Shown here in pieces: positions 792-61,999 of a stretch of DNA of 64,000 nucleotides (position 1 is its first letter; each line of letters opens with the position of its first letter). Under the pieces are notes generated by a model. That model was not told the origin of the DNA, ran no database searches, and saw nothing but the letters and a program-made list of their open reading frames with translations. Origin of the DNA: Shigella phage ESh17; sequence record ON528727; one strand, written 5' to 3'. Position numbers and translations under genes: made by a program.

Positions 792-1132
792 TGTTTATCT
801 TTAATTGGTTTAAAAGTTTCTTTACGGATTTTTTCTCTACAACTCCTGGGGAAGGTGTAGTTCCTATTTCAAATGACTACCTTCCTTTAACTGTAGTTGA
901 GTATGTTTATATGGGAGATGGAACAGTAGAAGCAGTTACTATGACTTATGAAGAAGCCCAAGAATATTATAAAAATCCTTGGCGCTGGTCAACACCTACT
1001 ACATCATCTAACACACAGAATACACAGTCTAGTTCTGATTCATATGATACTAATGTTCCTGTTCATGTATGGGCAGGGGATTCATGTGGAAGTTCTTGTG
1101 ATTCTAGTTGTTCATCTACATCTTGTGATTGA
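791..1132 (+). CDS. hypothetical protein with Cys/Ser-rich C-terminus
   Basis: ORF track; C-terminal [18 protein letters not shown]. Confidence 0.45.
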
Positions 1133-1140
1133 GGAAAATT

Positions 1141-1626
1141 ATGGAAGCAATTTTGTTTGAAATGTCTATCAATAGTATTAGTATGGCCTTTGTCAAGGAT
1201 GTTCCAATTACCGTAGCAGTAATGATTGATAAAAGATATGACAATAACATGTATCTAGTAGAAGATTTTATTTCAATGCCAATTCCAGAAGATGTTGAAA
1301 TAAAACTTAAAAAGATCGGAATTATTGAAACTGTACAAAATTCTCCATTTATGGCAATTCAAGCATTTACTAAATCTAACTATATTGATGTTAGTGAAGC
1401 ATATTATAATAATAAACCATTGTCCTTCTATTCATATGATTCAATATATGATTGGAAAATAGATAAAGGAAATAAATTTATAATTACGGACGAAAGTGCG
1501 CTATCATATTTTATTACCTCTTTATGGAATAATTTAAATCCAAATTTGCTAAAAATTCATAAATTTGACAATGCTCCTACTATTGTTTTAGGTAAAATAA
1601 ATGAAAGCTCTCAAGAAGATTCTTGA
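1141..1626 (+). CDS. hypothetical protein, 161 aa from ATG 1141; size and position fit T4 Mrh
   Basis: ORF track (TTG 1129 / ATG 1141); position between soc and modB. Confidence 0.5.
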
Positions 1627-1804
1627 ATGGTTCAATAGACCAAACTCAATGTACATTGATGATGGTTGGGTTGAACAAGCAAATAAAGAAATGCAGAACG
1701 AATCGGAAGAATGGATGAAATCAATGATTAGTGCTGAGAAAGAAAAGAAATTAGAACGCTCAGCGCTTAAATTGATGAGAGACATCTATGGGGATAAATC
1801 ATGA
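1601..1804 (+). CDS. hypothetical protein (67 aa)
   Basis: ORF track; overlaps upstream ORF by 26 nt. Confidence 0.4.
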
Positions 1805-1965
1805 GCAAAGATATGACGCTGGAAGAGGCTAAAGCAAAAGCAAATGAAGCAATGGATTTGCTTCTTAAAATTGGTAGTAAAATGATGGAAGAAAATGAGA
1901 AATATATCCAGGAAAACAAAATTCCCGACGGTCCATTAGTAGGCAAAAGGAAATCACATGATTGA
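1801..1965 (+). CDS. hypothetical small protein (54 aa)
   Basis: Manual translation [21 protein letters not shown]...; ATGA overlaps with both neighbours. Confidence 0.4.
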
Positions 1966-2428
1966 AGTAGCAAAACATTATTCAATAGAATTTATGTCTA
2001 AAGAAGGTAAATCAGTAAATACGCTTGATAAAAACTGCTCATTAATTATTCCTTTAGCAGAAAATCCGGATTTTTTAATTAAAGATATAAAAGAAAGAAA
2101 ATATCCAGAAAATATTATTCTAATTATAAAGCATACTGAAGATATTTTGCAAAATACTGATTCACCGTTTTCTTCTTCCGAAGCTTTAACTATTAAAGGC
2201 TATAAAAGAGCTCATGAATATGGTCTTTTTGACCTGTTTGAAGATGATAAAGTTAAATTAGCGAGTCAACCTTCGAAAAGTAAAACATTCATTATTGAAG
2301 ATATTAAAGATATAAATGCATTTGTTAAGATGGTCTGGGCTCATTTTGACGTTGGATTACGCTGGAGAATGTCCGAAGAAGAAAGAAAGATTGCTGAAGC
2401 TAATCGTCATTTTGGTTTTTATCGCTAG
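1958..2428 (+). CDS. hypothetical protein (156 aa)
   Basis: ORF track; co-oriented early array. Confidence 0.5.
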
Positions 2429-2436
2429 GAATTAAT

Positions 2437-2619
2437 ATGGATTTATTTGAGATGTTAGAAGATAATCATTCTACGAATATCCAGAATGATTCTAGTGATT
2501 ATAAGAAAGAGTACCGTATAGTATTACAGAATTATGGAATTGAAGCCCCAGATGCTCTTCTAGAAGAACTAGCTTCATACCATCTTGACCCTCCGCCCTG
2601 GGCTCCCTGGGCAAAATAA
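2437..2619 (+). CDS. hypothetical protein (60 aa)
   Basis: ORF track. Confidence 0.4.
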   Translation: MDLFEMLEDNHSTNIQNDSSDYKKEYRIVLQNYGIEAPDALLEELASYHLDPPPWAPWAK

Positions 2620-2630
2620 TTCAAAAAGTT

Positions 2631-2660
2631 GTTTACTTTCCTTTCTAACGATGATATGAT
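2631..2660 (+). promoter_or_regulatory. T4 early-type promoter
   Basis: gtttac 2631-2636, 18-nt spacer, tatgat 2655-2660. Confidence 0.55.
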
Positions 2661-2686
2661 AGCTTCTGAAGTATACGGAGGCTATC

Positions 2687-3310
2687 ATGATTATTAATCT
2701 TGCAGATGTTGAACAGTTATCTATAAAAGCTGAAAGCGTTGATTTTCAATATGATATGTATAAAAAAGTCTGTGAAAAATTTACTGACTTTGAGCAGTCA
2801 ATTCTTTGGCAATGTATGGAAGCCAAAAAGAATGAAGCTCTTCATCAGCAGTTGAATAAAATCGTTAAAAAGCATTTAACTAAATCGCCTTATCAGTTAT
2901 ATCGTGGTATATCAAAATCGACAAAAGAACTTATTAAAGATTTACAAGTTGGAGAAGTGTTTTCAACGAACAGGGTAGATTCATTTACTACTAGTTTATT
3001 CACAGCATGTTCTTTTTCTTATGCTGAATATTTTACTAAAATAATACTTCGCTTAAAAACTGATAAAGCTTTTAATTATTCTGACCATATCAGCGATATT
3101 ATACTTTCTTCTCCTAATACTGAGTTTAAGTACACGTATGAAGATACTGATGGGCTAGATTCAGAGCGTACTGATAACTTAATGATGATTGTGCGTGAAC
3201 AAGAATGGATGATTCCAATTGGAAAGTATAGAATAACTTCTATTTCAAAAGAAAAATTACACGATTCATTTGGAACATTTAAAGTTTATGATATTGAGGT
3301 AGTTGAATGA
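2687..3310 (+). CDS. modB: ADP-ribosyltransferase ModB
   Basis: 207 aa; R (LYRG), S-T-S-like (TTS) and E-x-E (EQEWMIP) motifs; directly upstream of modA. Confidence 0.7.
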   Translation: MIINLADVEQLSIKAESVDFQYDMYKKVCEKFTDFEQSILWQCMEAKKNEALHQQLNKIVKKHLTKSPYQLYRGISKSTKELIKDLQVGEVFSTNRVDSFTTSLFTACSFSYAEYFTKIILRLKTDKAFNYSDHISDIILSSPNTEFKYTYEDTDGLDSERTDNLMMIVREQEWMIPIGKYRITSISKEKLHDSFGTFKVYDIEVVE

Positions 3311-3909
3311 AATACTCAGTAATGCAACTAAAAGATTTTAAAATAAAATCAATGGATGCATCGGTGCGTGCTTCTATTCGTGAAGAATTACTTTCTGAAG
3401 GGTTTAATTTATCTGAAATTGAACTTTTAATTCATTGTATTACCAACAAACCAGATGACCATACTTGGTTAAATGAAATAATCAAATCTCGTTTGGTTCC
3501 AAACGATAAACCTCTTTGGAGAGGTGTTCCAGTCGAGACTAAGCAAGTATTAAATCAAGGAATTGATGTTATTATATTTGATAAAGTAGTATCAGCTTCA
3601 TATGATAAAAATATAGCTCTGCATTTTGCTTCCGGTTTAGAGTATAACACACAAGTTATTTTTGAATTCAAAGCTCCCATGGTATTCAATTTCCAGGAGT
3701 ATGCTATAAAAGCTCTACGCTGTAAAGAATACAATCCAAACTTTAAGTTTCCGGATAGCCATCGTTATCGTAATATGGAATTAGTTTCAGATGAACAAGA
3801 AGTAATGATACCAGCTGGAAGTGTATTTAGAATTGCAGATAGATACGAGTACAAAAAGTATTCAACATACACTATCTATACTCTTGAATTTGAAGGATTT
3901 AATCTATAA
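3307..3909 (+). CDS. modA: ADP-ribosyltransferase ModA
   Basis: 200 aa; translation matches remembered T4 ModA; R-S-EQE motifs. Confidence 0.85.
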   Translation: MKYSVMQLKDFKIKSMDASVRASIREELLSEGFNLSEIELLIHCITNKPDDHTWLNEIIKSRLVPNDKPLWRGVPVETKQVLNQGIDVIIFDKVVSASYDKNIALHFASGLEYNTQVIFEFKAPMVFNFQEYAIKALRCKEYNPNFKFPDSHRYRNMELVSDEQEVMIPAGSVFRIADRYEYKKYSTYTIYTLEFEGFNL

Positions 3910-3966
3910 TGGAAGGACTTAGATTCATTATACCATGAAAGTTTTAAAGCATTTTTACATAAAGTT

Positions 3967-3996
3967 GTTTACAAGTTAAGGTAAAAATGTTATAGT
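3967..3996 (+). promoter_or_regulatory. T4 early-type promoter
   Basis: gtttac 3967-3972, 18-nt spacer, tatagt 3991-3996. Confidence 0.5.
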
Positions 3997-4032
3997 ATAA
4001 GTAGTTAACCGTCCGTAAGATGTGAGAAAAAT

Positions 4033-4779
4033 ATGAAGCTGTCTAATAACCAAATTCGTAAAATTAAACGTCGTCTAGAGCATACTCAGGCATCTGCAAA
4101 AAGACGTTCTAAAGATTTTAACTTAGACTTCAATTACATTAAGAACATTTTAGATCAGAAAGTTTGCGCTTACTCGGGAGAACCTTTTGATAATCGTATT
4201 GAAGGAGAGAAATTATCATTAGAACGTTTTGATAATAACGTTGGATACATTAAAGGGAATGTTATTGCAGTAAAGAAAAAGTATAATACATTTCGTTCTG
4301 ATTATACTTTAGAAGAGTTAATTGAAAAGCGTGATTTATTTGCTTTGCGAATTGGTCGTTCATCTGCGAAAAAAGTTCATAAACTAAATTTAGATGAAAA
4401 GAAATGGGCTAAAATCAAAAAGACTTATAATCAAATTAAAGCTATACAGAAAAAACGTGAAAACCGAATTGAACACATTTCTCAGCTTTCTAAATCAAAA
4501 CAGACCTCTGACATTAAGCTAAGAATTATAGCACTTAAAGCTCGTATTGACGGTTCTCGCATAGCAGAAGGCGCTGAAGTTGTTAAACTGAACGTTCTTC
4601 TTAAAGGTTCGGATTGGAAAATTGTGAAAAAGTTGTCAGAAGCAGAAATGCAATATGATATGTGTGATAAAATTATTCAAGGTGTAGAGCGGTATCAAAA
4701 CTTGTCTTTTATTGATAAACTTAAACTGAAAAGAGGATATCCGCTAAATTGTTCAATTTTTAAACTTATCCGAGGATAA
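4033..4779 (+). CDS. srd: Srd-like protein (248 aa)
   Basis: Size and position between modA and dda as in T4. Confidence 0.5.
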   Translation: MKLSNNQIRKIKRRLEHTQASAKRRSKDFNLDFNYIKNILDQKVCAYSGEPFDNRIEGEKLSLERFDNNVGYIKGNVIAVKKKYNTFRSDYTLEELIEKRDLFALRIGRSSAKKVHKLNLDEKKWAKIKKTYNQIKAIQKKRENRIEHISQLSKSKQTSDIKLRIIALKARIDGSRIAEGAEVVKLNVLLKGSDWKIVKKLSEAEMQYDMCDKIIQGVERYQNLSFIDKLKLKRGYPLNCSIFKLIRG

Positions 4780-4780
4780 T

Positions 4781-5092
4781 ATGGTTTATGTATACGCGAT
4801 AGTTTACCGAGACAAAGACGGATTTACGGCGCCAGTTCCGCTTGATGAACATCGTCCTGCTGTATTTTTTGAATGGAAGATTGCTGATAAAGTATTTACC
4901 ACTCTTAAAGAGCAGTATCAACTAGCTTTAGGTAAGGGAATTCCAAGATTAGTTGAGACTCCACGTAAATTTTGGTTTAATAAAATAGAAGTTAAACATG
5001 TTAAGCCTGACGTAGACACACAAAGATTATATCAGCGAATTTTAGATACTGGGCGTATTGTTAGTATACCAATTGCAGGGAATTTACGATGA
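4781..5092 (+). CDS. hypothetical protein (dda.1 position)
   Basis: ORF track; ATGA overlap with dda. Confidence 0.5.
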   Translation: MVYVYAIVYRDKDGFTAPVPLDEHRPAVFFEWKIADKVFTTLKEQYQLALGKGIPRLVETPRKFWFNKIEVKHVKPDVDTQRLYQRILDTGRIVSIPIAGNLR

Positions 5093-6408
5093 CATTTGAT
5101 GATTTGACCGAAGGCCAGAAAAATGCCTTTAACATCGTTATGAAGGCTATTAAAGAAAAGAAACATCATGTAACTATTAATGGACCTGCTGGTACCGGTA
5201 AGACTACTCTTACCAAATTCATCATTGAAGCTTTAATATCTACGGGTGAAACTGGTATCATTTTGGCAGCTCCTACACATGCAGCTAAAAAGATTCTTTC
5301 AAAACTGTCGGGGAAAGAAGCGAGTACTATTCACAGTATTCTTAAAATTAACCCGGTAACATATGAAGAAAACGTTCTTTTTGAACAGAAGGAAGTACCG
5401 GATTTAGCTAAATGCAGGGTATTAATCTGCGACGAAGTGTCAATGTATGATAGAAAGCTATTCAAAATTCTGCTTTCAACTATCCCGCCGTGGTGTACTA
5501 TAATTGGAATAGGCGATAATAAGCAAATTAGACCTGTTGATCCAGGAGAAAATACTGCTTATATCAGTCCATTCTTTACACACAAAGATTTTTATCAGTG
5601 TGAACTTACTGAAGTTAAACGCAGTAATGCTCCTATTATTGATGTAGCTACTGATGTTCGCAACGGTAAGTGGATTTATGATAAAGTTGTTGACGGGCAT
5701 GGAGTACGTGGATTTACTGGTGATACCGCTTTACGCGATTTTATGGTAAATTATTTTTCAATCGTAAAATCATTAGATGATTTGTTTGAAAATCGCGTAA
5801 TGGCATTTACGAATAAATCTGTTGACAAGTTAAATAGCATTATTCGCAAAAAGATTTTTGAAACTGATAAAGATTTTATTGTCGGTGAAATTATTGTAAT
5901 GCAGGAACCATTAATTAAAACATATAAAATTGATGGAAAGCCTGTGTCAGAAATTATTTTTAATAACGGACAATTAGTTCGTATTATAGAAGCAGAGTAT
6001 ACATCAACCTTTGTTAAAGCTCGTGGTGTTTCTGGAGAATACTTAATTCGTCATTGGGATTTAACAGTAGAAACTTACGGCGATGATGAATATTATCGTG
6101 AAAAGATTAAAATAATTTCATCTGATGAAGAGCTATATAAGTTTAACCTATTTTTAGGTAAAACGGCAGAAACTTATAAAAATTGGAACAAAGGCGGAAA
6201 AGCTCCATGGAGTGATTTTTGGGATGCTAAATCACAGTTCAGTAAAGTGAAAGCACTTCCTGCATCAACATTCCATAAAGCTCAGGGTATGTCTGTAGAC
6301 CGTGCTTTCATTTATACGCCTTGTATTCATTATGCAGATGCTGAATTGGCCCAACAACTTCTTTATGTTGGTGTTACCCGTGGTCGTTATGATGTATTTT
6401 ATGTATGA
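5089..6408 (+). CDS. dda: Dda DNA helicase (SF1B)
   Basis: 439 aa; Walker A GPAGTGKT; matches remembered T4 Dda. Confidence 0.95.
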   Translation: MTFDDLTEGQKNAFNIVMKAIKEKKHHVTINGPAGTGKTTLTKFIIEALISTGETGIILAAPTHAAKKILSKLSGKEASTIHSILKINPVTYEENVLFEQKEVPDLAKCRVLICDEVSMYDRKLFKILLSTIPPWCTIIGIGDNKQIRPVDPGENTAYISPFFTHKDFYQCELTEVKRSNAPIIDVATDVRNGKWIYDKVVDGHGVRGFTGDTALRDFMVNYFSIVKSLDDLFENRVMAFTNKSVDKLNSIIRKKIFETDKDFIVGEIIVMQEPLIKTYKIDGKPVSEIIFNNGQLVRIIEAEYTSTFVKARGVSGEYLIRHWDLTVETYGDDEYYREKIKIISSDEELYKFNLFLGKTAETYKNWNKGGKAPWSDFWDAKSQFSKVKALPASTFHKAQGMSVDRAFIYTPCIHYADAELAQQLLYVGVTRGRYDVFYV

Positions 6409-6414
6409 TTAAAT

Positions 6415-6675
6415 TTGAGGAAGCTATTCGTGGAAATAACTAAAGACCAGTTTTATCTGCTTCAAGATAAAGTTAGCGAAATTTATGAATTAGCTTATAG
6501 TAAAAATCGTAGAAATGTAAAAATTGAATCTGGAAAGTTAATGCTTCAATTAGAAGAAATTGAACGAGATTTAATTGCGTTAGAATTCTTTTGTGGCGAA
6601 GTGAAAACTGTTACAATCAGTGATTATGTTTTAGGTGAAATTAGCCATCTTTATAAGGCGGTTATTAATGATTGA
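6415..6675 (+). CDS. hypothetical protein; non-ATG start (TTG 6415 or GTG 6430)
   Basis: ORF track; paralogous to next ORF. Confidence 0.4.
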   Translation: MRKLFVEITKDQFYLLQDKVSEIYELAYSKNRRNVKIESGKLMLQLEEIERDLIALEFFCGEVKTVTISDYVLGEISHLYKAVIND

Positions 6676-6910
6676 ATTAAGTTTGCATCAGTTTAAATCT
6701 CTTATGACAAATGTTAAAGCTGTCATTGAGGAAAATTCTAGTCCTGAAAATATTACTATTCGCGAAAAAGCTTTAAAGATAGTATACAGTCTTGAAGAGA
6801 TACAAAAAGATATTGAATCTATGGCAAAATTTATTGATGAGCCTATTAATAAAGTTTATATCCAAGATTATACTGTAGGTCAAATTCGCGATTTAGCAAG
6901 GAAAATTTAA
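6668..6910 (+). CDS. hypothetical protein (80 aa from ATG 6668)
   Basis: ORF track (6635) trimmed to ATG overlapping upstream stop; paralog of preceding ORF. Confidence 0.4.
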   Translation: MIELSLHQFKSLMTNVKAVIEENSSPENITIREKALKIVYSLEEIQKDIESMAKFIDEPINKVYIQDYTVGQIRDLARKI

Positions 6911-7593
6911 TGTTTGATTTTATTATAGATTTTGAAACAATGGGAAGCGGTGAAAAAGCAGCTGTTATTGATTTGGCTGTAATTGCTTTTGACCCTAACC
7001 CAGAAGTTGTTGAAACATTCGATGAACTAGTTTCACGTGGGATTAAAATTAAATTTGACTTAAAAAGTCAAAAAGGACATCGTCTTTTTACTAAAAGTAC
7101 TATCGAATGGTGGAAGAATCAATCTCCTGAAGCTCGAAAAAATATTGCACCGTCCGATGAAGATGTAAGCACTATCGACGGTATTGCGAAATTTAATGAT
7201 TACATCAATGCACATAATATCGATCCTTGGAAATCTCAAGGCTGGTGCCGTGGAATGTCGTTTGATTTTCCAATTTTAGTCGATCTCATTCGTGATGTTC
7301 AACGTCTTAATGGTGTTTCTGAGAATGAACTTGATACGTTTAAGTTAGAACCTTGTAAATTCTGGAATCAGCGTGATATTCGTACTAGAATTGAAGCACT
7401 TCTGCTTGTTCGTGATATGACCACGTGCCCTCTTCCAAAGGGAACTTTAGATGGATTCGTTGCACATGATTCTATTCATGACTGTGCGAAAGACATCCTG
7501 ATGATGAAGTATGCTTTGCGGTATGCTATGGGTCTTGAAGACGCTCCATCAGAGGAAGAATGCGATCCTCTATCTTTTCCAACAAAACGATAA
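6910..7593 (+). CDS. dexA: exonuclease A (DexA)
   Basis: 227 aa; size, position and N-terminus as remembered for T4 DexA. Confidence 0.85.
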   Translation: MFDFIIDFETMGSGEKAAVIDLAVIAFDPNPEVVETFDELVSRGIKIKFDLKSQKGHRLFTKSTIEWWKNQSPEARKNIAPSDEDVSTIDGIAKFNDYINAHNIDPWKSQGWCRGMSFDFPILVDLIRDVQRLNGVSENELDTFKLEPCKFWNQRDIRTRIEALLLVRDMTTCPLPKGTLDGFVAHDSIHDCAKDILMMKYALRYAMGLEDAPSEEECDPLSFPTKR

Positions 7594-23941: not shown

Positions 23942-24598
23942 TTATTTAGCCCTTCCTAATATTCTGGCCGCCTGAGCGCATATTGATTCAAGGCGGTCAT
24001 TACTTATATGATCATTTCTATACCAGTACATGGTTATCGTTCCAGCATAGATATTATCCAAATTAAAATATGGACAACTGTACATGTAGTTTATTTCGGG
24101 AGTAGGCTTTTTAGTTGGTAAAAAAGCAAATTTTGAGTCAGAATAATAATGACGTCCATTTAAATGAACTATATATTCATCCATAGTTTTATCAACAGGA
24201 TATCCTCCAAGTGATTTTTCAGTTATTGTTGAAGGTAATCTTCCTTCGTATGCTATAATATCAACAAAATAGTTTAAGTTTTTAGGGCGGAAAGAATACA
24301 CCGCACTAAAGTCTGCCTCAGATGATATATGAACTATCTGGAGTTGTTCCAGGGCGACAGATTCAAAGCGTGCATTTCTTTCCTTTTCAATAATTTCACT
24401 GTATGTTTCATACTTTGATTGCTTATAGTACTCAAAGAAACTATCTCCCCTATACCAAACAATCGCCATCATAAATAAAAGAATTACGACAGCTACCCGG
24501 GAAGCAAGAACTTTCCCGGTAGCGTTATCTTTGAACAAGCGATCTAGAACACCAAACAGAATATCAGAGGGCGAAAATGATATTCTAGGTGCTGCCAT
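23942..24598 (-). CDS. t: holin T
   Basis: 218 aa; N-terminal TM segment; matches T4 holin size and position. Confidence 0.9.
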   Translation of the reverse strand: MAAPRISFSPSDILFGVLDRLFKDNATGKVLASRVAVVILLFMMAIVWYRGDSFFEYYKQSKYETYSEIIEKERNARFESVALEQLQIVHISSEADFSAVYSFRPKNLNYFVDIIAYEGRLPSTITEKSLGGYPVDKTMDEYIVHLNGRHYYSDSKFAFLPTKKPTPEINYMYSCPYFNLDNIYAGTITMYWYRNDHISNDRLESICAQAARILGRAK

Positions 24599-54188: not shown

Positions 54189-54639
54189 GTTAGAGATTAG
54201 AAGCAATTTTAGGTGGCCATCATGTGCATTAAGTAATTTCGCCCAATGGCCTTTCGTTATGGATGGTATTCAATTTGGAGGTCTTGAAGGATTCCTCCAA
54301 GGGTGCAAGGTGAAAAATGTTGAACAACAACGTCGTATATTTGGGTTATCCGGGCTTGCCGCCCAACAAGCTGGAAGGTCTTATGCTAGAGCTCAGGACC
54401 GTGGGACCCTCTTCTGGCTTGGAGTTCCATTTTCAAGATACTCCCCAGCGTGGAAAGAATTATACACAAATGCATATTTTGAAGCAGCGATCCAAAATAG
54501 GGGCTTTCGCGATGCATTACAAGCCTCGAAAGGAAAAGTTTTGAAGCACAGCATGGCTAGTGGTCTAACAAAAGATGATACAATACTAACCGAAGCTGAA
54601 TTTATTGATGTGTTAAACCTATTAAGAGACTCTCTATGA
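54181..54639 (+). CDS. NADAR (YbiA/DUF1768)-like protein
   Basis: N-terminal LSNF...PF..DG..F...E.F.Q..K pattern typical of NADAR. Confidence 0.6.
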   Translation: MSELEIRSNFRWPSCALSNFAQWPFVMDGIQFGGLEGFLQGCKVKNVEQQRRIFGLSGLAAQQAGRSYARAQDRGTLFWLGVPFSRYSPAWKELYTNAYFEAAIQNRGFRDALQASKGKVLKHSMASGLTKDDTILTEAEFIDVLNLLRDSL

Positions 54640-55499
54640 AGCCTACTATTTTAACTGATATTGATGGAGTATGTTTAAGCTGGCAATCAGGTCTTCCTTA
54701 TTTTGCTCAGAAATATAATCTTCCGTTAGAACATATTTTAAAAATGATCCAAGATGAGAAATTTATTTCTCCAGGTAAACTATTTAATTGTGATGAAGAA
54801 CTTGGCGTCAAGTTAATTGAAAAATACAATCGTTCAGATTTTATTCGTTACTTGTCTCCGTATAAAGATGCTCTGTGTGTAATTAACAAATTAAAAGAAG
54901 ATTATAATTTTGTAGCTGTTACAGCATTGGGTGATTCTATTGACGCTCTGTTGAATCGTCAATTTAATTTGAATGCTCTTTTTCCTGGTGCCTTCTCAGA
55001 AGTAATGATGTGTGGTCATGATTCTTCAAAAGAAGAGTTATTCAAAAAGGCAAAAGAGAAATATAACGTAATTTGTTATATTGACGATCTTGCTCACCAC
55101 TGCGATCATGCGAGTGAAATATTAAATGTTCCGGTTTATTGGATGGCTCGAGGAGAGCGTGACAATATTCCAAAAACTGCGCAGCGAGTTTATACATGGA
55201 ATGATGTAGAAAATAAGCTTTTTTCACCGAAGGAAAATAAAGAAAGTTTTGATAGTGAAAAAGCTATAAAAGATGTAATTGAGAAGATGGTTAAAAACGA
55301 TTCTTTTCGTTGGAACACTACCTGGAGAACTCCTGGATTTAATCCGTATAATCCATATTATACACATCCATATAATCCATATTATACACACCCGTATCAT
55401 ATGAATCCATTCCATACGTGGAGTTATACTAAGCCTGGTGATGCAGGGTATTTTAATAGATTTACTAGTGGTGATAATATTTTCCAAGGAGCATTCTAA
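54636..55499 (+). CDS. HAD-superfamily phosphatase-like protein with C-terminal Pro/Tyr/His repeat
   Basis: Motif I ILTDIDGVC; repeated NPYYTHPY units. Confidence 0.6.
   Translation: MKPTILTDIDGVCLSWQSGLPYFAQKYNLPLEHILKMIQDEKFISPGKLFNCDEELGVKLIEKYNRSDFIRYLSPYKDALCVINKLKEDYNFVAVTALGDSIDALLNRQFNLNALFPGAFSEVMMCGHDSSKEELFKKAKEKYNVICYIDDLAHHCDHASEILNVPVYWMARGERDNIPKTAQRVYTWNDVENKLFSPKENKESFDSEKAIKDVIEKMVKNDSFRWNTTWRTPGFNPYNPYYTHPYNPYYTHPYHMNPFHTWSYTKPGDAGYFNRFTSGDNIFQGAF
55341..55410 (+). repeat. imperfect 24-27 nt tandem repeat inside 54636..55499
   Basis: aatccatattatacacatccatat / aatccatattatacacacccgtatcat. Confidence 0.6.
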
Positions 55500-55768
55500 T
55501 GTTTGTCGTTCACACTATTTATGAAAATGAAGGTAATACTACACGTGATTATGGTCACGTAAATCAATTTTTTAGATGCAATCCAGAATTCCGAGCTCAA
55601 AAAGACGAACGAATTTTTAAAAAATGTGTAGAGCAAGGTTTCATTTATATCAAGCACTGGATGCAAGGAAATAAAGTTAGAACTACATATCATAGGTCTT
55701 TGACTGAGCTTAATGATGAATTGATTTATAATAGAGCTGTAAACCAAACTCTAAAGGATGAACAATGA
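55499..55768 (+). CDS. hypothetical protein (89 aa)
   Basis: ORF track. Confidence 0.5.
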   Translation: MFVVHTIYENEGNTTRDYGHVNQFFRCNPEFRAQKDERIFKKCVEQGFIYIKHWMQGNKVRTTYHRSLTELNDELIYNRAVNQTLKDEQ

Positions 55769-57228
55769 TTCTTAAAATTCTGAACGAAATAGCATCTATT
55801 GGTTCAACTAAGCAGAAGCAAGCAATTCTTGAAAAGAATAAAGATAATGAATTGCTTAAACGAGTATATCGTCTAACTTATTCTCGTGGGTTACAGTATT
55901 ATATCAAGAAATGGCCTAAACCTGGTATTGCTACCCAGAGTTTTGGAATGTTGACTCTTACCGATATGCTTGACTTCATTGAATTCACATTAGCTACTCG
56001 GAAATTGACTGGAAATGCGGCAATTGAAGAATTAACTGGATATATCACCGATGGTAAAAAGGATGATGTTGAAGTTTTGCGTCGGGTGATGATGCGAGAC
56101 CTTGAATGCGGTGCTTCAGTATCTATTGCAAACAAAGTTTGGCCAGGTTTAATTCCTGAACAACCTCAAATGCTGGCAAGTTCTTATGATGAAAAAGGCA
56201 TTAATAAGAATATCAAATTTCCAGCCTTTGCCCAATTAAAAGCTGATGGAGCTCGGTGTTTTGCCGAAGTCAGAGGTGATGAATTAGATGATGTTCGTCT
56301 TTTATCACGAGCTGGTAATGAATATCTAGGATTAGACCTTCTCAAAGAAGAGTTAATCAAAATGACCGCTGAAGCCCGCCAGATTCATCCAGAAGGTGTG
56401 TTAATTGATGGCGAATTGGTATACCATGAGCAAGTTAAAAAGGAGCCAGAAGGCCTAGATTTTCTTTTTGATGCTTATCCTGAAATTAGTAAAGCTAAAG
56501 AATTCGCCGAAGTAGCTGAATCTCGTACTGCATCTAATGGCATCGCCAATAAATCTTTAAAGGGAACCATTTCTGAAAAAGAAGCACAATGCATGAAGTT
56601 TCAGGTCTGGGATTATGTACCGTTGGTAGAAATATACGGTCTTCCGGCGTTTCGTTTAAAATATGATGTACGTTTTTCTAAACTAGAACAAATGACATCA
56701 GGATATGATAAAGTAATTTTAATTGAAAACCAGGTAGTAAATAACCTAGATGAAGCTAAGGTAATTTATAAAAAGTATATTGACCAAGGTCTTGAAGGTA
56801 TTATTCTCAAAAATACCGATGGATTGTGGGAAAATGCTCGTTCAAAAAATCTCTATAAATTTAAAGAAGTAATTGATGTTGATTTAAAAATTGTAGGAAT
56901 TTATCCTCACCGTAAAGACCCTACTAAAGCAGGTGGATTTATTCTTGAATCAGAGTGTGGAAAAATTAAAGTAAATGCTGGTTCAGGCTTAAAAGATAAA
57001 GCTGGTGTAAAATCGCATGAACTTGATCGTACTCGCATTATGGAAAACCAAAATTATTATATTGGAAAAATTCTAGAGTGCGAATGCAACGGTTGGTTAA
57101 AATCTGATGGACGTACTGATTACGTTAAATTATTTCTTCCGATTGCGATTCGTTTACGTGAAGATAAAACTAAAGCTAATACATTCGAGGATGTATTTGG
57201 TGATTTTCATGAGGTAACTGGTCTATGA
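55765..57228 (+). CDS. 30: ATP-dependent DNA ligase (gp30)
   Basis: 487 aa; matches remembered T4 DNA ligase; KADGAR adenylation motif. Confidence 0.95.
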   Translation: MILKILNEIASIGSTKQKQAILEKNKDNELLKRVYRLTYSRGLQYYIKKWPKPGIATQSFGMLTLTDMLDFIEFTLATRKLTGNAAIEELTGYITDGKKDDVEVLRRVMMRDLECGASVSIANKVWPGLIPEQPQMLASSYDEKGINKNIKFPAFAQLKADGARCFAEVRGDELDDVRLLSRAGNEYLGLDLLKEELIKMTAEARQIHPEGVLIDGELVYHEQVKKEPEGLDFLFDAYPEISKAKEFAEVAESRTASNGIANKSLKGTISEKEAQCMKFQVWDYVPLVEIYGLPAFRLKYDVRFSKLEQMTSGYDKVILIENQVVNNLDEAKVIYKKYIDQGLEGIILKNTDGLWENARSKNLYKFKEVIDVDLKIVGIYPHRKDPTKAGGFILESECGKIKVNAGSGLKDKAGVKSHELDRTRIMENQNYYIGKILECECNGWLKSDGRTDYVKLFLPIAIRLREDKTKANTFEDVFGDFHEVTGL

Positions 57229-57413
57229 AAGCTTACTTAGAAACAATTGTCATTGCTCAAAAAGAAGGTGGAGATGTTTCTACTTCTGTATCACAAGTCA
57301 TTCTCGAATTTGTAGATGCATATGCTTATAATAAATTCACAGAAACATTTGATGCCTATGAAAAAGGTCCAAAGTTTGAAATATATCGTACTCTCTTACC
57401 ACTAGATTACTAA
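57225..57413 (+). CDS. hypothetical protein (62 aa)
   Basis: ORF track; ATGA coupling to ligase. Confidence 0.45.
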   Translation: MKAYLETIVIAQKEGGDVSTSVSQVILEFVDAYAYNKFTETFDAYEKGPKFEIYRTLLPLDY

Positions 57414-57435
57414 AGGCCTTCGGGCCTTTAATTTT
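57414..57435 (+). terminator. hairpin terminator
   Basis: ggccttcgggcc + tttaatttt. Confidence 0.55.
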
Positions 57436-57465
57436 ATAAATAGAATAAACACTAGAGAGGATATG

Positions 57466-59559
57466 ATGGAACTCATTACAGAATTATTTGACGAAGATAC
57501 TACTCTTCCGATTACAAACTTAAATCCAAAGAAGAAAATACCGCAAATTTTTTCAGTTCATGTTGATGACGCAATTGAACAACCAGGCTTTCGTTTATGT
57601 ACCTATACATCTGGAGGTGATACTAATCGCGATTTAAAGATGGGCGATAAAATGATGCATATTGTTCCTTTTACATTAACTGCTAAAGGTTCAATTGCTA
57701 AATTAAAAGGTCTCGGTCCAAGCCCAATTAATTACATCAATTCAGTTTTTACTGTTGCAATGCAAACGATGCGTCAGTATAAAATTGATGCCTGCATGCT
57801 CCGTATTCTTAAGTCTAAAACTGCTGGTCAAGCTCGTCAAATTCAACTTATTGCTGATAGACTTATCCGCAGTCGTTCAGGTGGCAGATACGTCCTTCTT
57901 AAGGAACTCTGGGATTACGATAAAAAGTATGCATATATTCTTATACATCGCAAAAATGTATCACTAGAAGACATTCCAGGAGTTCCGGAAATTAGTACCG
58001 AGCTCTTTACTAAAGTTGAATCGAAGGTCGGTGATGTTTATATCAATAAAGATACTGGAGCTCAAGTAACTAAAAATGAGGCAATTGCAGCATCTATTGC
58101 GCAAGAAAATGATAAACGTTCTGACCAAGCTGTAATCGTTAAAGTTAAAATTTCACGTAGAGCAATTGCGCAAAGTCAATCATTGGAATCTTCTAGATTT
58201 GAAAGTGAATTATTCCAGAAGTATGAATCTACCGCAGCTAATTTCAATAAACCTGCTACCGCTCCTTTAATTCCCGAAGCAGAAGAAATGAAGCTTGGAA
58301 TTAATTCGTTAGCTTCTAAAACTAAGGCAGCAAAAATTATTGCCGAAGGAACTGCGAATGAACTTCACTATGACTATAAATTCTTTTCAAAAAGTGAGGT
58401 TGATGAAGTTTCAGAAAAAATTAAAGATGTAATTTTTAACGCAATCAAAAATGAACCAACTACTTCAATAAAATGTTTAGAGAAATACGCAGCAGCTGTT
58501 AATAAATTCTTTGAAGAATATAAAGATAATTGGCTTGATAAACATAATAAAACTCGTAAAGGGCAACCAGATGAAGTCTGGGGAGAAATAACTAAAAATG
58601 CATGGAATGCAGCAAAAACTAAATTCCTCAAACGAATGATTTATAGCTTTTCTGGAATTGGTGCTGGTCCAATGATTGATATTACTATTGCCCGTGATGG
58701 TTCTAAATATACTCCATCACAAAAGCGAGGTATTAGAGAATATTGTGGTTCAGGATATACAGACATTAATAATCTTCTTTTAGGTCGTTACAATCCAGAA
58801 CGATATGATGTAATGAGTGAAAAAGAAATTGAATCTGCTATAAATAATTTAGATTCAGCTTTTGAAAATGGTGACCGCATACCGGAAGGCATTACAGTTT
58901 ATCGTGCTCAAAGTATGACTGCTCCTATATACGAAGCACTAGTTAAAAATAAAGTGTTCTATTTCAGAAATTTTGTATCTACTTCTTTAACTCCTATCAT
59001 TTTTGGACGTTTTGGAATTACACATGCTGGTATTGGTCTTTTAGAACCAGAAGCTCGCAATGAATTAACAGTTGATAAAAATGAAGAAGGAATAACTATT
59101 AATCCAAACGAAATAAGAGCGTATAAAGAAAATCCTGAATACGTTAAAGTTCAAATAGGATGGGCAATTGATGGAGCTCATAAAGTTAATGTTGTATATC
59201 CAGGAAGTCTCGGAATAGCAACAGAAGCCGAAGTTATTCTACCGCGCGGATTGATGGTCAAAGTTAATAAAATAACTGATGCTTCTAATAATGACGGAAC
59301 CACGTCTAATAATACAAAACTCATTCAAGCTGAAGTTATGACCACCGAAGAACTCACCGAATCGGTAATTTATGACGGTGACCGTTTAATGGAAACCGGC
59401 GAAGTAGTTGCAATGACAGGTGATATTGAAATAGAAGACAGAGTTGACTTTGCATCATTTGTTTCATCAAATGTTAAACAGAAAGTAGAATCATCTCTTG
59501 GAATTATTGCGTCTTGCATAGATATTACAAACATGCCTTACAAGTTCGTTCAAGGATAA
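57466..59559 (+). CDS. alt: Alt ADP-ribosyltransferase (packaged, injected)
   Basis: About 697 aa from MELITELFDEDTT; matches remembered T4 Alt; R (YRAQ), STS, E-x-E (EAEVILP). Confidence 0.9.
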   Translation: MELITELFDEDTTLPITNLNPKKKIPQIFSVHVDDAIEQPGFRLCTYTSGGDTNRDLKMGDKMMHIVPFTLTAKGSIAKLKGLGPSPINYINSVFTVAMQTMRQYKIDACMLRILKSKTAGQARQIQLIADRLIRSRSGGRYVLLKELWDYDKKYAYILIHRKNVSLEDIPGVPEISTELFTKVESKVGDVYINKDTGAQVTKNEAIAASIAQENDKRSDQAVIVKVKISRRAIAQSQSLESSRFESELFQKYESTAANFNKPATAPLIPEAEEMKLGINSLASKTKAAKIIAEGTANELHYDYKFFSKSEVDEVSEKIKDVIFNAIKNEPTTSIKCLEKYAAAVNKFFEEYKDNWLDKHNKTRKGQPDEVWGEITKNAWNAAKTKFLKRMIYSFSGIGAGPMIDITIARDGSKYTPSQKRGIREYCGSGYTDINNLLLGRYNPERYDVMSEKEIESAINNLDSAFENGDRIPEGITVYRAQSMTAPIYEALVKNKVFYFRNFVSTSLTPIIFGRFGITHAGIGLLEPEARNELTVDKNEEGITINPNEIRAYKENPEYVKVQIGWAIDGAHKVNVVYPGSLGIATEAEVILPRGLMVKVNKITDASNNDGTTSNNTKLIQAEVMTTEELTESVIYDGDRLMETGEVVAMTGDIEIEDRVDFASFVSSNVKQKVESSLGIIASCIDITNMPYKFVQG

Positions 59560-59562
59560 ATC

Positions 59563-61620
59563 ATGGAACTTATTACAGAATTATTTGACGGCGCTTCGGC
59601 GCCGGTTGTTAACTTAAATCCTAAGCATAAAATACCACAAATTTTTGCTATTCAAGCCGGTGAAGAAAGCGTGCTTCCTGGATTTAGATTTTGTACATAC
59701 ACCTCTGGCGGTGATACGAATAAAAACGTTAAGCCAGGCGATAAAATGATGCATATCGTAATGATAGGTGTCAACGAGAAATTATCGCTGGTTAAGCTTA
59801 GAAACTTGGGTGGAAATCCAATTGGCGTCATTAATGCTGTTTTTGATACTGCTCTTCAAACAATGAAACAGTATAAAATTGACGCATGCCTATTCCGCGT
59901 ACTAAAAAGTAAAACAAATGGCGCTGCTCGTCAAATGCAAGTTATTGCTGACCGTTTAGTACGTACTAAAGGAGCAGGTCGATATGTTCTTTTAAAGGAA
60001 ATCTGGGACTATGATAAAAAGTATGCATATATTATGGTTTACCGTAAAAATGCCAATTTAGAAGACATTCCAGGTGTACCTCCTATTTCAACTGAGTTAT
60101 TCACAAAAGTTGAATCGAAGGTCGGTGATGTTTATGTAGATGTTAAAACAGGTAATGCTGTTCCTAAAGCTGTCGCTGTTGCTGCTTCTATTGCTTTAGA
60201 AAATGATAAGCGCACGGATCAAGCTGTTATTCAAAAAACTAAAATTAGTCGTCGATTAGCAGCACAAGCTCAATATTCTACTGTCGATGCTTCACTTCAG
60301 GGTGATAGCTTCGCTGCTAAGAAATATCAAGAGTTTGAATCTAAAGTTCCGGTATATAAAGCAGAAGGTCCGATGAACTCTGGCGTTATCCAGATTGGTT
60401 CAAACTTCAGCAAAGGAGCTATCGGTGGTATGAGGAGTGCTTCTCGTTTTAAATCTAGCGATTATGAACTAGAAAACTTCCGAAATCATATTGCATTGGC
60501 CCATGCACGTTTACGTGATCCATCTATCAAGTTGCAGAGCGATATAACATATCAAGGTTCTCAAGAATATTTAAAGAATAAAGAATTCTTTGATTATAAA
60601 ACTGATAAAATTTTAAGCGATCTTGCTGACATTAATATTTCTAATAGCTTTGATGTTATTAAGAAAATTATTAATGATTTAGTTAAAGGTTCTAAAGCTA
60701 CGCCAGATGAAAAGACAGCTATTATTCAATTTGTCATGAATGGCATTTATAAATTGATTAATGAATCTGCTGCCCAGGCATATGAATATGCAAGCACCGA
60801 AGTAACTCCAAAAGGATTAACTCAGGCTGAGTCTGATGTAATTGAAGATTATTGTGCAGATTCATATGTTGAAATGAACTCGTTCCTCTTGGGTAAACCA
60901 GATTCTACCCGTGAAGAATACATGGAACGAGCTATTAAACACATCGAGACAATGGATTCTGCATTCGCTAAAGGTTCAGTTCTTCCTCCAGGAACTACGC
61001 TTTATCGTGGACAAGAAGTTACTTTTAAAACTTTACGTCATAATATTGAAAACAAAATGTTCTATTTCAAGAACTTTGTATCCACGTCGCTTAAACCAAA
61101 CATCTTCGGTGAGCATGGTAAAAACTATATGGCTCTAGATGATTCCGGTGCAGTATTTTCTGGTGAAGGAGAAGGTTCTGTTGATGCTGAAGATTTAATG
61201 CATATGGGTAGTCACTCTGCTTATGCGAATGAAGACGCTGAAACTAGCGTAGGTATGGTAATTAAAGGGGCTGAGCGAATCAAAGTTATCGTTCCAGGTC
61301 ATTTATCAGGATTTCCATCAGAAGCTGAAGTTATTTTACCGCGTGGAATTTTGCTGAAGATTAATAAAGTGAGCACGTACATGATGAAAGAAACTGCTTA
61401 TAATAAGTATCTAATCGAAGGCACAATCGTTCCTCCTTCTGAACAATTAGAAGAATCGGTATATGATGGCGATCATCTAATGGAAACTGGTGAAGTTCGT
61501 CCAATGGCTGGGTTTAATCAATTCCTTGTAGAAGAATCAAAAGAAGAGGAAAACGAAGTTTCTCAAATCTTGGCTTCTTTGGTTAACATCAACGGAATGT
61601 CTAAAAAGTTCAAGATGTAG
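59563..61620 (+). CDS. Alt-like ADP-ribosyltransferase paralog
   Basis: 685 aa; N-terminus MELITELFDG and ART motifs YRGQ, STS, EAEVILP shared with Alt; central region divergent. Confidence 0.8.
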   Translation: MELITELFDGASAPVVNLNPKHKIPQIFAIQAGEESVLPGFRFCTYTSGGDTNKNVKPGDKMMHIVMIGVNEKLSLVKLRNLGGNPIGVINAVFDTALQTMKQYKIDACLFRVLKSKTNGAARQMQVIADRLVRTKGAGRYVLLKEIWDYDKKYAYIMVYRKNANLEDIPGVPPISTELFTKVESKVGDVYVDVKTGNAVPKAVAVAASIALENDKRTDQAVIQKTKISRRLAAQAQYSTVDASLQGDSFAAKKYQEFESKVPVYKAEGPMNSGVIQIGSNFSKGAIGGMRSASRFKSSDYELENFRNHIALAHARLRDPSIKLQSDITYQGSQEYLKNKEFFDYKTDKILSDLADINISNSFDVIKKIINDLVKGSKATPDEKTAIIQFVMNGIYKLINESAAQAYEYASTEVTPKGLTQAESDVIEDYCADSYVEMNSFLLGKPDSTREEYMERAIKHIETMDSAFAKGSVLPPGTTLYRGQEVTFKTLRHNIENKMFYFKNFVSTSLKPNIFGEHGKNYMALDDSGAVFSGEGEGSVDAEDLMHMGSHSAYANEDAETSVGMVIKGAERIKVIVPGHLSGFPSEAEVILPRGILLKINKVSTYMMKETAYNKYLIEGTIVPPSEQLEESVYDGDHLMETGEVRPMAGFNQFLVEESKEEENEVSQILASLVNINGMSKKFKM

Positions 61621-61680
61621 TTTACAAGTCCCTCGTGTTGTGTTACAATAGTTTTACTGACATAACATGAGGAACACAAA
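61620..61680 (+). promoter_or_regulatory. early-type promoter plus SD-sequestering hairpin (copy 2)
   Basis: Near-identical to 46273..46330. Confidence 0.5.
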
Positions 61681-61971
61681 ATGAAATCTTCTTTACGCTT
61701 TTTAGGTCAAGAACTTGTAGTTGAAGGCGTTATTCCTGCTGATAACGCTTTTAATGAAGCAGTTTATGATGAATTTATCAAAATTTTTGGAACAGATAAA
61801 AAGTTCGGAATTTTTCCTTCTGAAAATTTTTCAAAGCCAGAGCAGACTGAAAGCATTTTCCAAGGTGTAGTAACAGGTAAATTTGAGTCAGAAGCTCCGG
61901 TAAAAATTGAAGTTTATATTGAAGACAGTTTAGTTGCTTCAGTTGCTGCTTTTATTTCATTCCGTAAATAA
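61681..61971 (+). CDS. hypothetical protein (96 aa)
   Basis: ORF track. Confidence 0.5.
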   Translation: MKSSLRFLGQELVVEGVIPADNAFNEAVYDEFIKIFGTDKKFGIFPSENFSKPEQTESIFQGVVTGKFESEAPVKIEVYIEDSLVASVAAFISFRK

Positions 61972-61977
61972 AAATAT

Positions 61978-61995
61978 GGGGACCGAAAGGTCCCC
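61978..61995 (+). terminator. bidirectional hairpin between convergent genes
   Basis: ggggaccgaaaggtcccc between plus-strand ORF and minus-strand gene 54. Confidence 0.55.
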
Positions 61996-61999
61996 ATTG

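Follow-up and report, generated by a model that had tools for sequence, protein, structure and literature searches.

Bacteriophage T4 is the reference for phage-directed ADP-ribosylation, yet it is atypical at the alt locus: in about four-fifths of the sequenced relatives with this DNA, the locus encodes a second full-length enzyme of the Alt type, whose gene is deleted in T4. The T4 ADP-ribosyltransferase (ART) Alt is a protein of the prohead core, present in about 40 copies, and trimming by gp21 yields its 68-kDa mature form (PMC5694885; PMC9026906). The positions at which the gp21 prohead protease cuts Alt, ITE-6 and LTE-619, were determined by mass spectrometry (PMC5694885). T4 alt.-1 and alt.-2, together with open reading frames (ORFs) of other T4-like phages, have been described as paralogous duplications of alt (Nolan et al. 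2006, PMC1524935). Here, we analyzed the alt locus in a window (the whole stretch of DNA under study) of 64,000 nucleotides (nt) from Shigella phage ESh17, sequence record ON528727, which is a segment of a T-even (Tequatrovirus) genome. In this window, alt is followed by a second Alt-type gene, referred to here as alt2.

The best explanation of the comparisons presented below is that alt2 represents a functional, anciently duplicated paralog of alt. On balance, we consider it probable that its product, Alt2, acts as a second head-packaged, gp21-processed, injected arginine mono-ADP-ribosyltransferase with substrates other than or additional to those of Alt.

Modular relationship between Alt and Alt2

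An earlier inspection of the letters and their ORFs, the sequence-only reading, had described a 685-amino-acid (aa) ORF placed 3 nt after alt, which shares its N-terminal 230 or so residues and its catalytic C-terminal region with Alt but has an unrelated center of about 250 residues. The ORF on the plus strand is real, and its spacing from alt was confirmed: the alt stop codon TAA (59557 to 59559) is followed by ATC and then by the alt2 start codon ATG at 59563. By BLASTP, the two proteins are 41% identical over 719 columns (E = 1e-157, far beyond chance). Pairwise alignment recovered the common N-terminal part with 67% identity over residues 1 to 238. Identity was 18% for residues 239 to 415, 35% for residues 416 to 625, 71% for residues 626 to 650, and about 29% for the tail. 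The central regions of Alt and Alt2 gave no BLASTP match to each other, and remote homology between them was rejected by profile-profile comparison with hhalign (probability 0.15%, E = 0.4). The middle is therefore unrelated as described, but it covers about 177 residues and not 250, because only residues 239 to 415 are devoid of BLASTP or profile similarity. We treat the middle regions as nonhomologous at the sequence level; both are predicted to be helical and may share a fold. The idea of a conserved catalytic end held for the catalytic and processing elements, whereas the ART domain as a whole has diverged far more strongly than the N-terminal module. It includes a hypervariable acidic insert (residues 521 to 565) that is only 16% identical to Alt.

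The general likeness of Alt2 to T4 Alt extends to its size (685 versus 682 aa), the N-terminal module, an R-S-ExE ART domain, gp21 motifs at both ends, and the genomic position typical of the Alt family, between gene 30/alt.1 and alt.-3/gene 54, that is, between DNA ligase and the baseplate genes 54/48. It differs from Alt in overall identity, in the nonhomologous center, in the diverged ART domain, and in carrying a different insert between the STS and ExE motifs. The N-terminal domain is presumed to be a module for prohead-core targeting and retention, and the central region is a candidate substrate-recognition module.

Phrog_802 matches Alt2 over its full length (E = 5e-256), and NCBIfam holds no model for either Alt or Alt2. 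No match to the N-terminal domain was found in a local Pfam copy; precomputed annotation lists PF26846 for it, and the pair of PF03496 and PF26846 is common to all full-length family members listed there. A search of 1.8 billion proteins with the N-terminal domain yielded 69 representatives, most of them 600 to 712 aa long. An ART domain was present in five of the eight that were scanned against Pfam.

Catalytic residues and predicted fold

The Pfam family ADPrib_exo_Tox (PF03496) matched residues 416 to 620 with 73.2 bits against a gathering score of 23.4 (E = 2.3e-20). The motifs quoted in the sequence-only reading were all located (YRGQ at residue 481, STS at 507, and EAEV at 587), and Arg, Ser-Thr-Ser, and Glu-x-Glu follow one another in the order expected for R-S-E (C2/C3/VIP2-like) mono-ADP-ribosyltransferases. 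The ExE motif is typical of arginine-specific ARTs (C2/iota/VIP2 class). In an alignment of 21 family sequences with 42 to 97% identity to Alt2, R482, S507, S509, E587, and E589 were invariant and T508 was nearly so. The loss of the catalytic Arg or Glu from the paralog, which the earlier reading had named as an outcome that would count against it, did not occur, since R482, the STS motif, and E587/E589 are all kept.

An ART fold was present in the predicted structure. The AlphaFold model, generated from the shallow 21-sequence alignment, is of moderate confidence, with a predicted local distance difference test score (pLDDT) of 72. It comprises an N-terminal alpha/beta domain (approximately residues 12 to 224; pLDDT roughly 70 to 90), a helical middle (approximately 250 to 415; about 80 to 90 for residues 300 to 410 and low for 262 to 299), the ART domain (approximately 420 to 625), and a disordered tail (629 to 685; below 50). 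Compared with Alt2, the bacterial R-S-E ART toxins Vis, C3, iota/CPILE-a, Certhrax, and VIP2 share 18 to 25% sequence identity and have no counterpart of its N-terminal 415 residues. The toxins are delivered by secretion or by the B component of a binary toxin, whereas delivery via the phage head is proposed for Alt2.

These data also bear on a noncatalytic role, in which Alt2 would be mainly a head-core or internal protein, for instance one involved in DNA condensation or head filling, with its ART activity irrelevant or lost. Mutants of T4 lacking alt package more DNA (PMC3012670), indicating that internal proteins take up head volume, and the N-terminal domain of Alt2 is basic (isoelectric point [pI], 9.7). 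Nevertheless, all catalytic residues are invariant and the ratio of nonsynonymous to synonymous substitution rates (dN/dS) of the ART domain is 0.039, and we regard such a role as highly improbable.

Distribution of alt2 and its deletion in T4

The novelty implied by the sequence-only reading was not upheld, as the gene is widespread and has already been annotated as alt.-2, Alt2, or Alt-like. The exact protein is deposited in GenBank as a "hypothetical protein" of Shigella phages ESh18 and ESh17 (URY11875.1/URY12159.1) and falls into a 90%-identity cluster of 772 sequences, which includes the copy of T2. By tblastn, matches of at least 90% identity were obtained in 401 phage records, including T2, T6, RB6, RB18, RB27, RB32, RB33. 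In RB32, the gene is named alt.-2 and carries the note "apparent insertion in alt.-2; similar to alt." The RefSeq product, "Alt-like RNA polymerase ADP-ribosyltransferase," is a name given by homology only. The BASEL phage Bas37 (KarlGJung, MZ501089) has the pair annotated as "Alt" and "Alt2," each 99% identical to its ESh17 counterpart. Thus, alt.-2 of RB32, the Alt-like proteins of T2 and T6, and bas37_0032 ("ADP-ribosyltransferase Alt2") of Bas37 are orthologs with approximately 97 to 99% protein identity and the same length and context, and none differs substantively from Alt2 of ESh17.

The situation in T4 is different. The small ORFs alt.-1 and alt.-2 (61 and 67 aa), which directly follow alt, correspond to the first 116 or so codons of alt2, with about 95% DNA identity at the same place. 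According to the DNA alignment, T4 lacks 1,699 bp (codons ~117 to 682) between two CTAAAAAGT repeats, and an additional 1-nt deletion splits the remnant into two ORFs. The location of the deletion between 9-bp direct repeats, together with the frameshift, indicates that the T4 state is derived and does not reflect an insertion in the other phages. Relative to the T4 remnant, alt2 of ESh17 is the intact ancestral form. Among 499 phage records with alt2 DNA, the T4-type junction is present in 94 and the gene is intact in about 400; truncated variants exist as well (P0006, P0008, and P0010). Hence, alt2 is an already known, annotated, and very common T-even gene, whose only surprise is its absence from T4. 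Its identification here is a correct rediscovery of an uncharacterized gene and does not add a new kind of element. Its modest interest lies in its encoding a conserved enzyme, probably injected, in most T-even phages.

Age of the duplication, selection, and recombination

Escherichia phage WG01, a Dhakavirus, contains three tandem Alt-like genes of 631, 693, and 707 aa at the same ligase-to-gene-54 locus (positions 1012 to 7124 of the WG01 stretch). One of the products, gp199, is 49% identical to Alt2, and its middle region matches only that of Alt2 (48%). Another, gp200, is 66% identical to ESh17 Alt, and its middle region matches only that of Alt (65%). As gp199 is of the Alt2 type and gp200 is of the Alt type, the two lineages predate the split of these genera, and both were retained. 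WG01 gp199 (707 aa), the last of the three, adjoins an alt.-3 homolog and is the positional ortholog of Alt2. In contrast to ESh17, WG01 has a third paralog upstream (gp201, 631 aa), and its N-terminal domains are more diverged. The copy number at the alt locus thus ranged from one to three among the phages examined.

Among Tequatrovirus orthologs, dN/dS was 0.025 to 0.038 for alt2 and 0.034 for alt. The middle region of alt2 displayed 0 nonsynonymous and 13 synonymous differences between ESh17 and RB32. These values are relevant to the proposal that alt2 is a decaying duplicate, or an annotation artifact of a long chance ORF. The deleted and frameshifted remnant in T4 and the 94 records, and the "apparent insertion" note in RB32, could be read that way. 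However, a 685-codon frame that is intact in about 400 records, evolves with a dN/dS of about 0.03, and has orthologs in another genus does not fit decay, and the T4 state is the derived one; this proposal is effectively refuted.

The same observations speak to redundancy. Alt2 might be a packaged and active back-up whose substrate range is virtually that of Alt (RNA polymerase alpha and others), with the duplication only adding dose or robustness. Both proteins possess the N-terminal module, the processing sites, and the ExE site, T4 manages with one copy, and T4 Alt has been described as modifying many host proteins (PMC5512222). Yet the middles are nonhomologous and the ART domains strongly diverged, and each lineage has been kept across genera under strong purifying selection. 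Copies retained for dosage would tend to be homogenized or lost, so separately conserved, diverged lineages are expected to have distinct functions. We therefore consider redundancy unlikely.

Within ESh17, the N-terminal 750 nt of alt and alt2 share 66% DNA identity, and no exact match between them exceeds 30 nt. Recent gene conversion between the two genes was rejected on these grounds. Because DNA identity is this low, the N-terminal part owes its conservation to selection and not to recent conversion. Elsewhere, the tandem copies do recombine or convert occasionally, as concluded from four metagenomic Alt2 variants (P0003, P0004, P0005, and P0007) with chimeric N termini. These carry a progressively longer Alt-type N terminus on an Alt2 body, with the switch from Alt type to Alt2 type at four different points, near residues 55, 105, 195, and 220.

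Predicted expression, processing, and packaging

The sequence TATAAATA is the T4 late-promoter consensus. Its copy about 20 nt before the alt start, directly after a terminator-like hairpin, is likely the late promoter of an alt-alt2 unit. It should be noted that TATAAATA occurs in the window at chance frequency (10 matches versus 9.9 expected); the promoter call is made because this copy sits directly upstream of alt. A sequence scan of the interval between alt and alt2 detected neither a terminator-like site nor TATAAATA, and alt2 thus lies behind the late promoter of alt with no terminator intervening. A second TATAAATA is located inside alt (58839 to 58846, plus strand), about 720 nt upstream of alt2, and may be an internal late promoter or a chance occurrence. 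A late promoter specific to alt2 was rejected, as TATAAATA is absent from 58847 to 59562 and the copy at 58839 may equally well be a chance match. The start of alt itself is probably the second ATG (57466), giving a 697-aa protein that begins with MELITE.

The residues ITE-6 and LEE-631 of Alt2 align with the T4 Alt cleavage sites ITE-6 and LTE-619, and a gp21 motif is hence found at both ends. LEE-631 resides within the conserved block ESxxYDGDxxxETGE, in which E631 was invariant in the 21-sequence alignment. The surroundings of this C-terminal site constitute the segment that is 71% identical to Alt, though the flanking ART domain and tail reach only about 30%. Cleavage at the two positions would leave a mature Alt2 of residues 7 to 631 (69.1 kDa). 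As judged from sequence, the conserved gp21 motifs and the position behind the late promoter of alt strengthen the case for packaging.

Alternatively, Alt2 may not be injected at all, acting inside the producing cell in a ModA/ModB-like manner or being made late without entering the head. We found no virion proteomics for Alt2 in the literature, and early transcripts from the gene 30 region could read through past the terminator upstream of alt. For an enzyme that is not packaged, however, the retention of the full 230-residue Alt N-terminal module and of both cleavage motifs, including the ESxxYDGDxxxETGE block, would be unexplained. ModA and ModB are proteins of about 200 aa that have neither the Alt N-terminal module nor the propeptide sites. 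We view an Alt2 that stays outside the head as quite unlikely.

Proposed function of Alt2

If Alt2 is a packaged and injected enzyme, its life cycle would proceed as follows. The late promoter upstream of alt would be the main source of a common alt-alt2 transcript, on which alt2 would be translated from a Shine-Dalgarno sequence of its own. The 76-kDa precursor would enter the prohead scaffolding core via the N-terminal module it has in common with Alt. There, gp21 would trim it after Glu6 (ITE) and Glu631 (LEE), leaving residues 7 to 631 (~69 kDa), and the mature protein would remain in the head and be injected along with the DNA. In the newly infected cell, the R-S-ExE site would use NAD+ for mono-ADP-ribosylation of arginines in host proteins. 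Given the nonhomologous helical middle and the diverged ART surface, including the insert at residues 521 to 565, we propose that the substrate set of Alt2 differs from that of Alt. The sequence-only reading had likewise suggested a tandem pair of injected effectors that differ in target specificity, a reasonable interpretation that is partly supported here. The integrity of the gene, the catalytic residues, the fold, the conserved cleavage motifs, purifying selection, the distribution, and the loss from T4 are shown by the data, and the timing of expression, packaging, cleavage, injection, enzymatic activity, and separate targets are inferred from them.

That divergence within the Alt family changes function is illustrated by Alt itself. 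The Alt of ESh17 is 70% identical to T4 Alt and is a mosaic: residues 1 to 245 and the last 100 or so (from ExE onward) are nearly identical to T4, whereas conservation is much lower across residues ~246 to 585, which comprise the middle and most of the ART core. A study of Bas37 reports that T4 Alt helps the phage evade Mokosh type I, a function in which Bas37 Alt cannot substitute for it (10.1101/2025.11.20.689424). Bas37 Alt, the allele that failed in the Mokosh type I rescue, is 99% identical to ESh17 Alt. The functional change follows from this failure to replace T4 Alt.

The same source, a preprint, provides transposon sequencing of Bas37 on E. coli K-12 (10.1101/2025.11.20.689424). Insertions were recorded at 116 of the 164 TA sites in Alt2 (saturation, 0.71; mean count, 44.5; class "Intermediate") and at 164 of the 179 sites in Alt (saturation, 0.92; mean count, 203.6; class "Non-essential"). 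The lower saturation suggests that Alt2 is apparently not neutral and that its disruption carries a cost. In the two of six HIDEN-SEQ conditional-essentiality comparisons covered, no strain-specific effect was reported for Alt2 (10.1101/2025.11.20.689424).

Several points weigh against an injected Alt2 with targets of its own. Good growth of T4 without alt2, the 94 records with the deletion, and the truncated variants imply that phages can do without the gene in many settings. The reduced transposon saturation may stem from polarity, from toxicity of truncated products, or from a bias in insertion. A role of the N-terminal domain in packaging is presumed even for Alt, short L/I-x-E motifs are also present at other places in Alt2, and the structure model is of moderate confidence only. 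Besides the missing virion proteomics mentioned above, a literature search for Alt2 returned no study of its activity, packaging, targets, or function.

Should Alt2 be injected and have targets of its own, the T4-based account of how T-even infection begins in its first seconds would be incomplete, including with respect to RNA polymerase "alteration" and the neutralization of MazF or Mokosh, and Alt2 would clearly stand out as a candidate host-takeover or antidefense factor. The question is directly testable, as T2, T6, BASEL phages, and genetic tools exist. More tentatively, T-even phages could be envisaged to carry an array of one to three cassette-type injected effectors, in which the middle and ART modules are exchangeable and the frame for head loading and processing (the N-terminal domain and terminal propeptides) stays constant. 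In such a speculative scheme, Alt2 would be an antidefense effector whose target for ADP-ribosylation is not RNA polymerase but a host immunity or stress protein, its loss from T4 would contribute to differences in host range or defense sensitivity among T-even phages, and cargo other than ARTs might rely on the Alt N-terminal fold for loading in other myoviruses.

Features of the alt-alt2 locus and neighboring genes

The 4.8-kb stretch around alt2 shares 99.7% identity with Shigella phage ESh18; for T2, RB32, RB27, and RB33, the value is about 97%. The features of the locus are compiled in Table 1.

TABLE 1 Coordinates of features at the alt-alt2 locus of ESh17 (window numbering)
Feature	Position	Strand	Remarks
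DNA ligase gp30	55765-57228	+	
62-aa ORF between ligase and alt	57225-57413	+	Pfam PF24647 Phage_blade ("Phage blade protein"), E = 2e-29; alt.1 in RB32
Intrinsic-terminator-like hairpin, 3' of 62-aa ORF and 5' of alt	57411-57430	+	8-bp stem, 4 GC pairs, T-rich tail
TATAAATA, likely late promoter	57435-57442	+	~20 nt before alt start, directly after terminator hairpin
alt	57463-59559	+	698-aa ORF from first ATG; PF03496, E = 2e-37
Shine-Dalgarno sequence of alt2, AAGGA	59552-59556	+	Within last alt codons, 6 nt upstream of ATG; read from sequence
alt2 (alt.-2 in RB32)	59563-61620	+	685 aa plus stop
Residues 1-6 (MELITE), predicted N-terminal propeptide	59563-59580	+	Identical to T4 Alt 1-6; E6 invariant
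Residues 7-238, Alt-family N-terminal alpha/beta domain	59581-60276	+	67% identity to Alt
CTAAAAAGT, first copy of 9-bp direct repeat	59902-59910	+	Left end of T4 deletion
Residues 239-415, all-helical central region	60277-60807	+	No detectable homology to Alt center
Residues 416-631, R-S-ExE ART domain	60808-61455	+	Includes variable acidic insert 521-565
Catalytic Arg482 codon (Y-R-G-Q)	61006-61008	+	
Ser507-Thr508-Ser509 codons (STS motif)	61081-61089	+	
Glu587-Ala588-Glu589 codons (ExE motif)	61321-61329	+	
Residues 632-685, predicted acidic C-terminal propeptide	61456-61617	+	54 residues, pI 4.6; disordered in model
CTAAAAAGT, second copy	61601-61609	+	Right end of T4 deletion, 1,699 bp away
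T4-early-type promoter-like site between alt2 and alt.-3	61621-61649	+	TTTACA, 17 nt, TG-TACAAT; 10/12 matches, extended -10 TG
alt.-3	61681-61971	+	96 aa; DUF5498, PF17602, E = 1e-64; downstream neighbor, outside alt2
Bidirectional terminator hairpin between alt.-3 and gene 54	61976-61997	.	Ends the unit

The start codon of the 62-aa ORF overlaps the ligase stop codon (ATGA). Downstream of alt2, alt.-3 appears to have an early-type promoter of its own and is followed by genes 54 and 48 on the opposite strand. Mutants with a C-terminal extension of alt.-3 let T4 escape the CmdTAC defense system (PMC11618068). According to the Bas37 transposon data, the alt.-3 ortholog bas37_0031 was depleted on E. 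coli CFT073 (log2 fold change, -2.70; q = 0.02) (10.1101/2025.11.20.689424).

Occurrence of the N-terminal fold elsewhere and other observations in the window

A Foldseek search of the BFVD with the model of Alt2 residues 1 to 415 revealed the N-terminal fold beyond Alt homologs (E = 1e-5 to 1e-3 over 170 to 240 columns, 11 to 16% identity). The matches were uncharacterized large proteins, including those of Dickeya phage RC-2014, Shigella phage MK-13, Erwinia phage phiEa2809, Vibrio phage VP-1, and Agrobacterium phage Atu_ph07. The annotations include a Zeta-toxin domain in one match and a deaminase domain in another. From these predicted structures, the Alt N-terminal domain may serve more generally to load different kinds of cargo into the head. 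Two metagenomic proteins, P0183 (485 aa) and P0184 (541 aa), contain an Alt-type N-terminal domain of approximately 140 to 200 residues and may be non-ART fusions. Their remaining sequence had no match in Pfam, and their C-terminal parts had none in isolated phages. In Providencia phage PSTCR6, the match to the N-terminal domain is a 688-aa protein encoded at the same position after the ligase gene.

A tRNA scan of the window found none. Upstream of the ligase region, a 287-aa ORF (54636 to 55499) begins with a DxDG-type motif (MKPTILTDIDGV...), which is putatively HAD-phosphatase-like, and ends in a short tandem peptide repeat (NPYNPYYTHPYNPYYTHPY). Between positions 24001 and 34000 of the window, GC content rises to 0.37 to 0.42 and GC skew is negative, probably reflecting a set of genes on the opposite strand.

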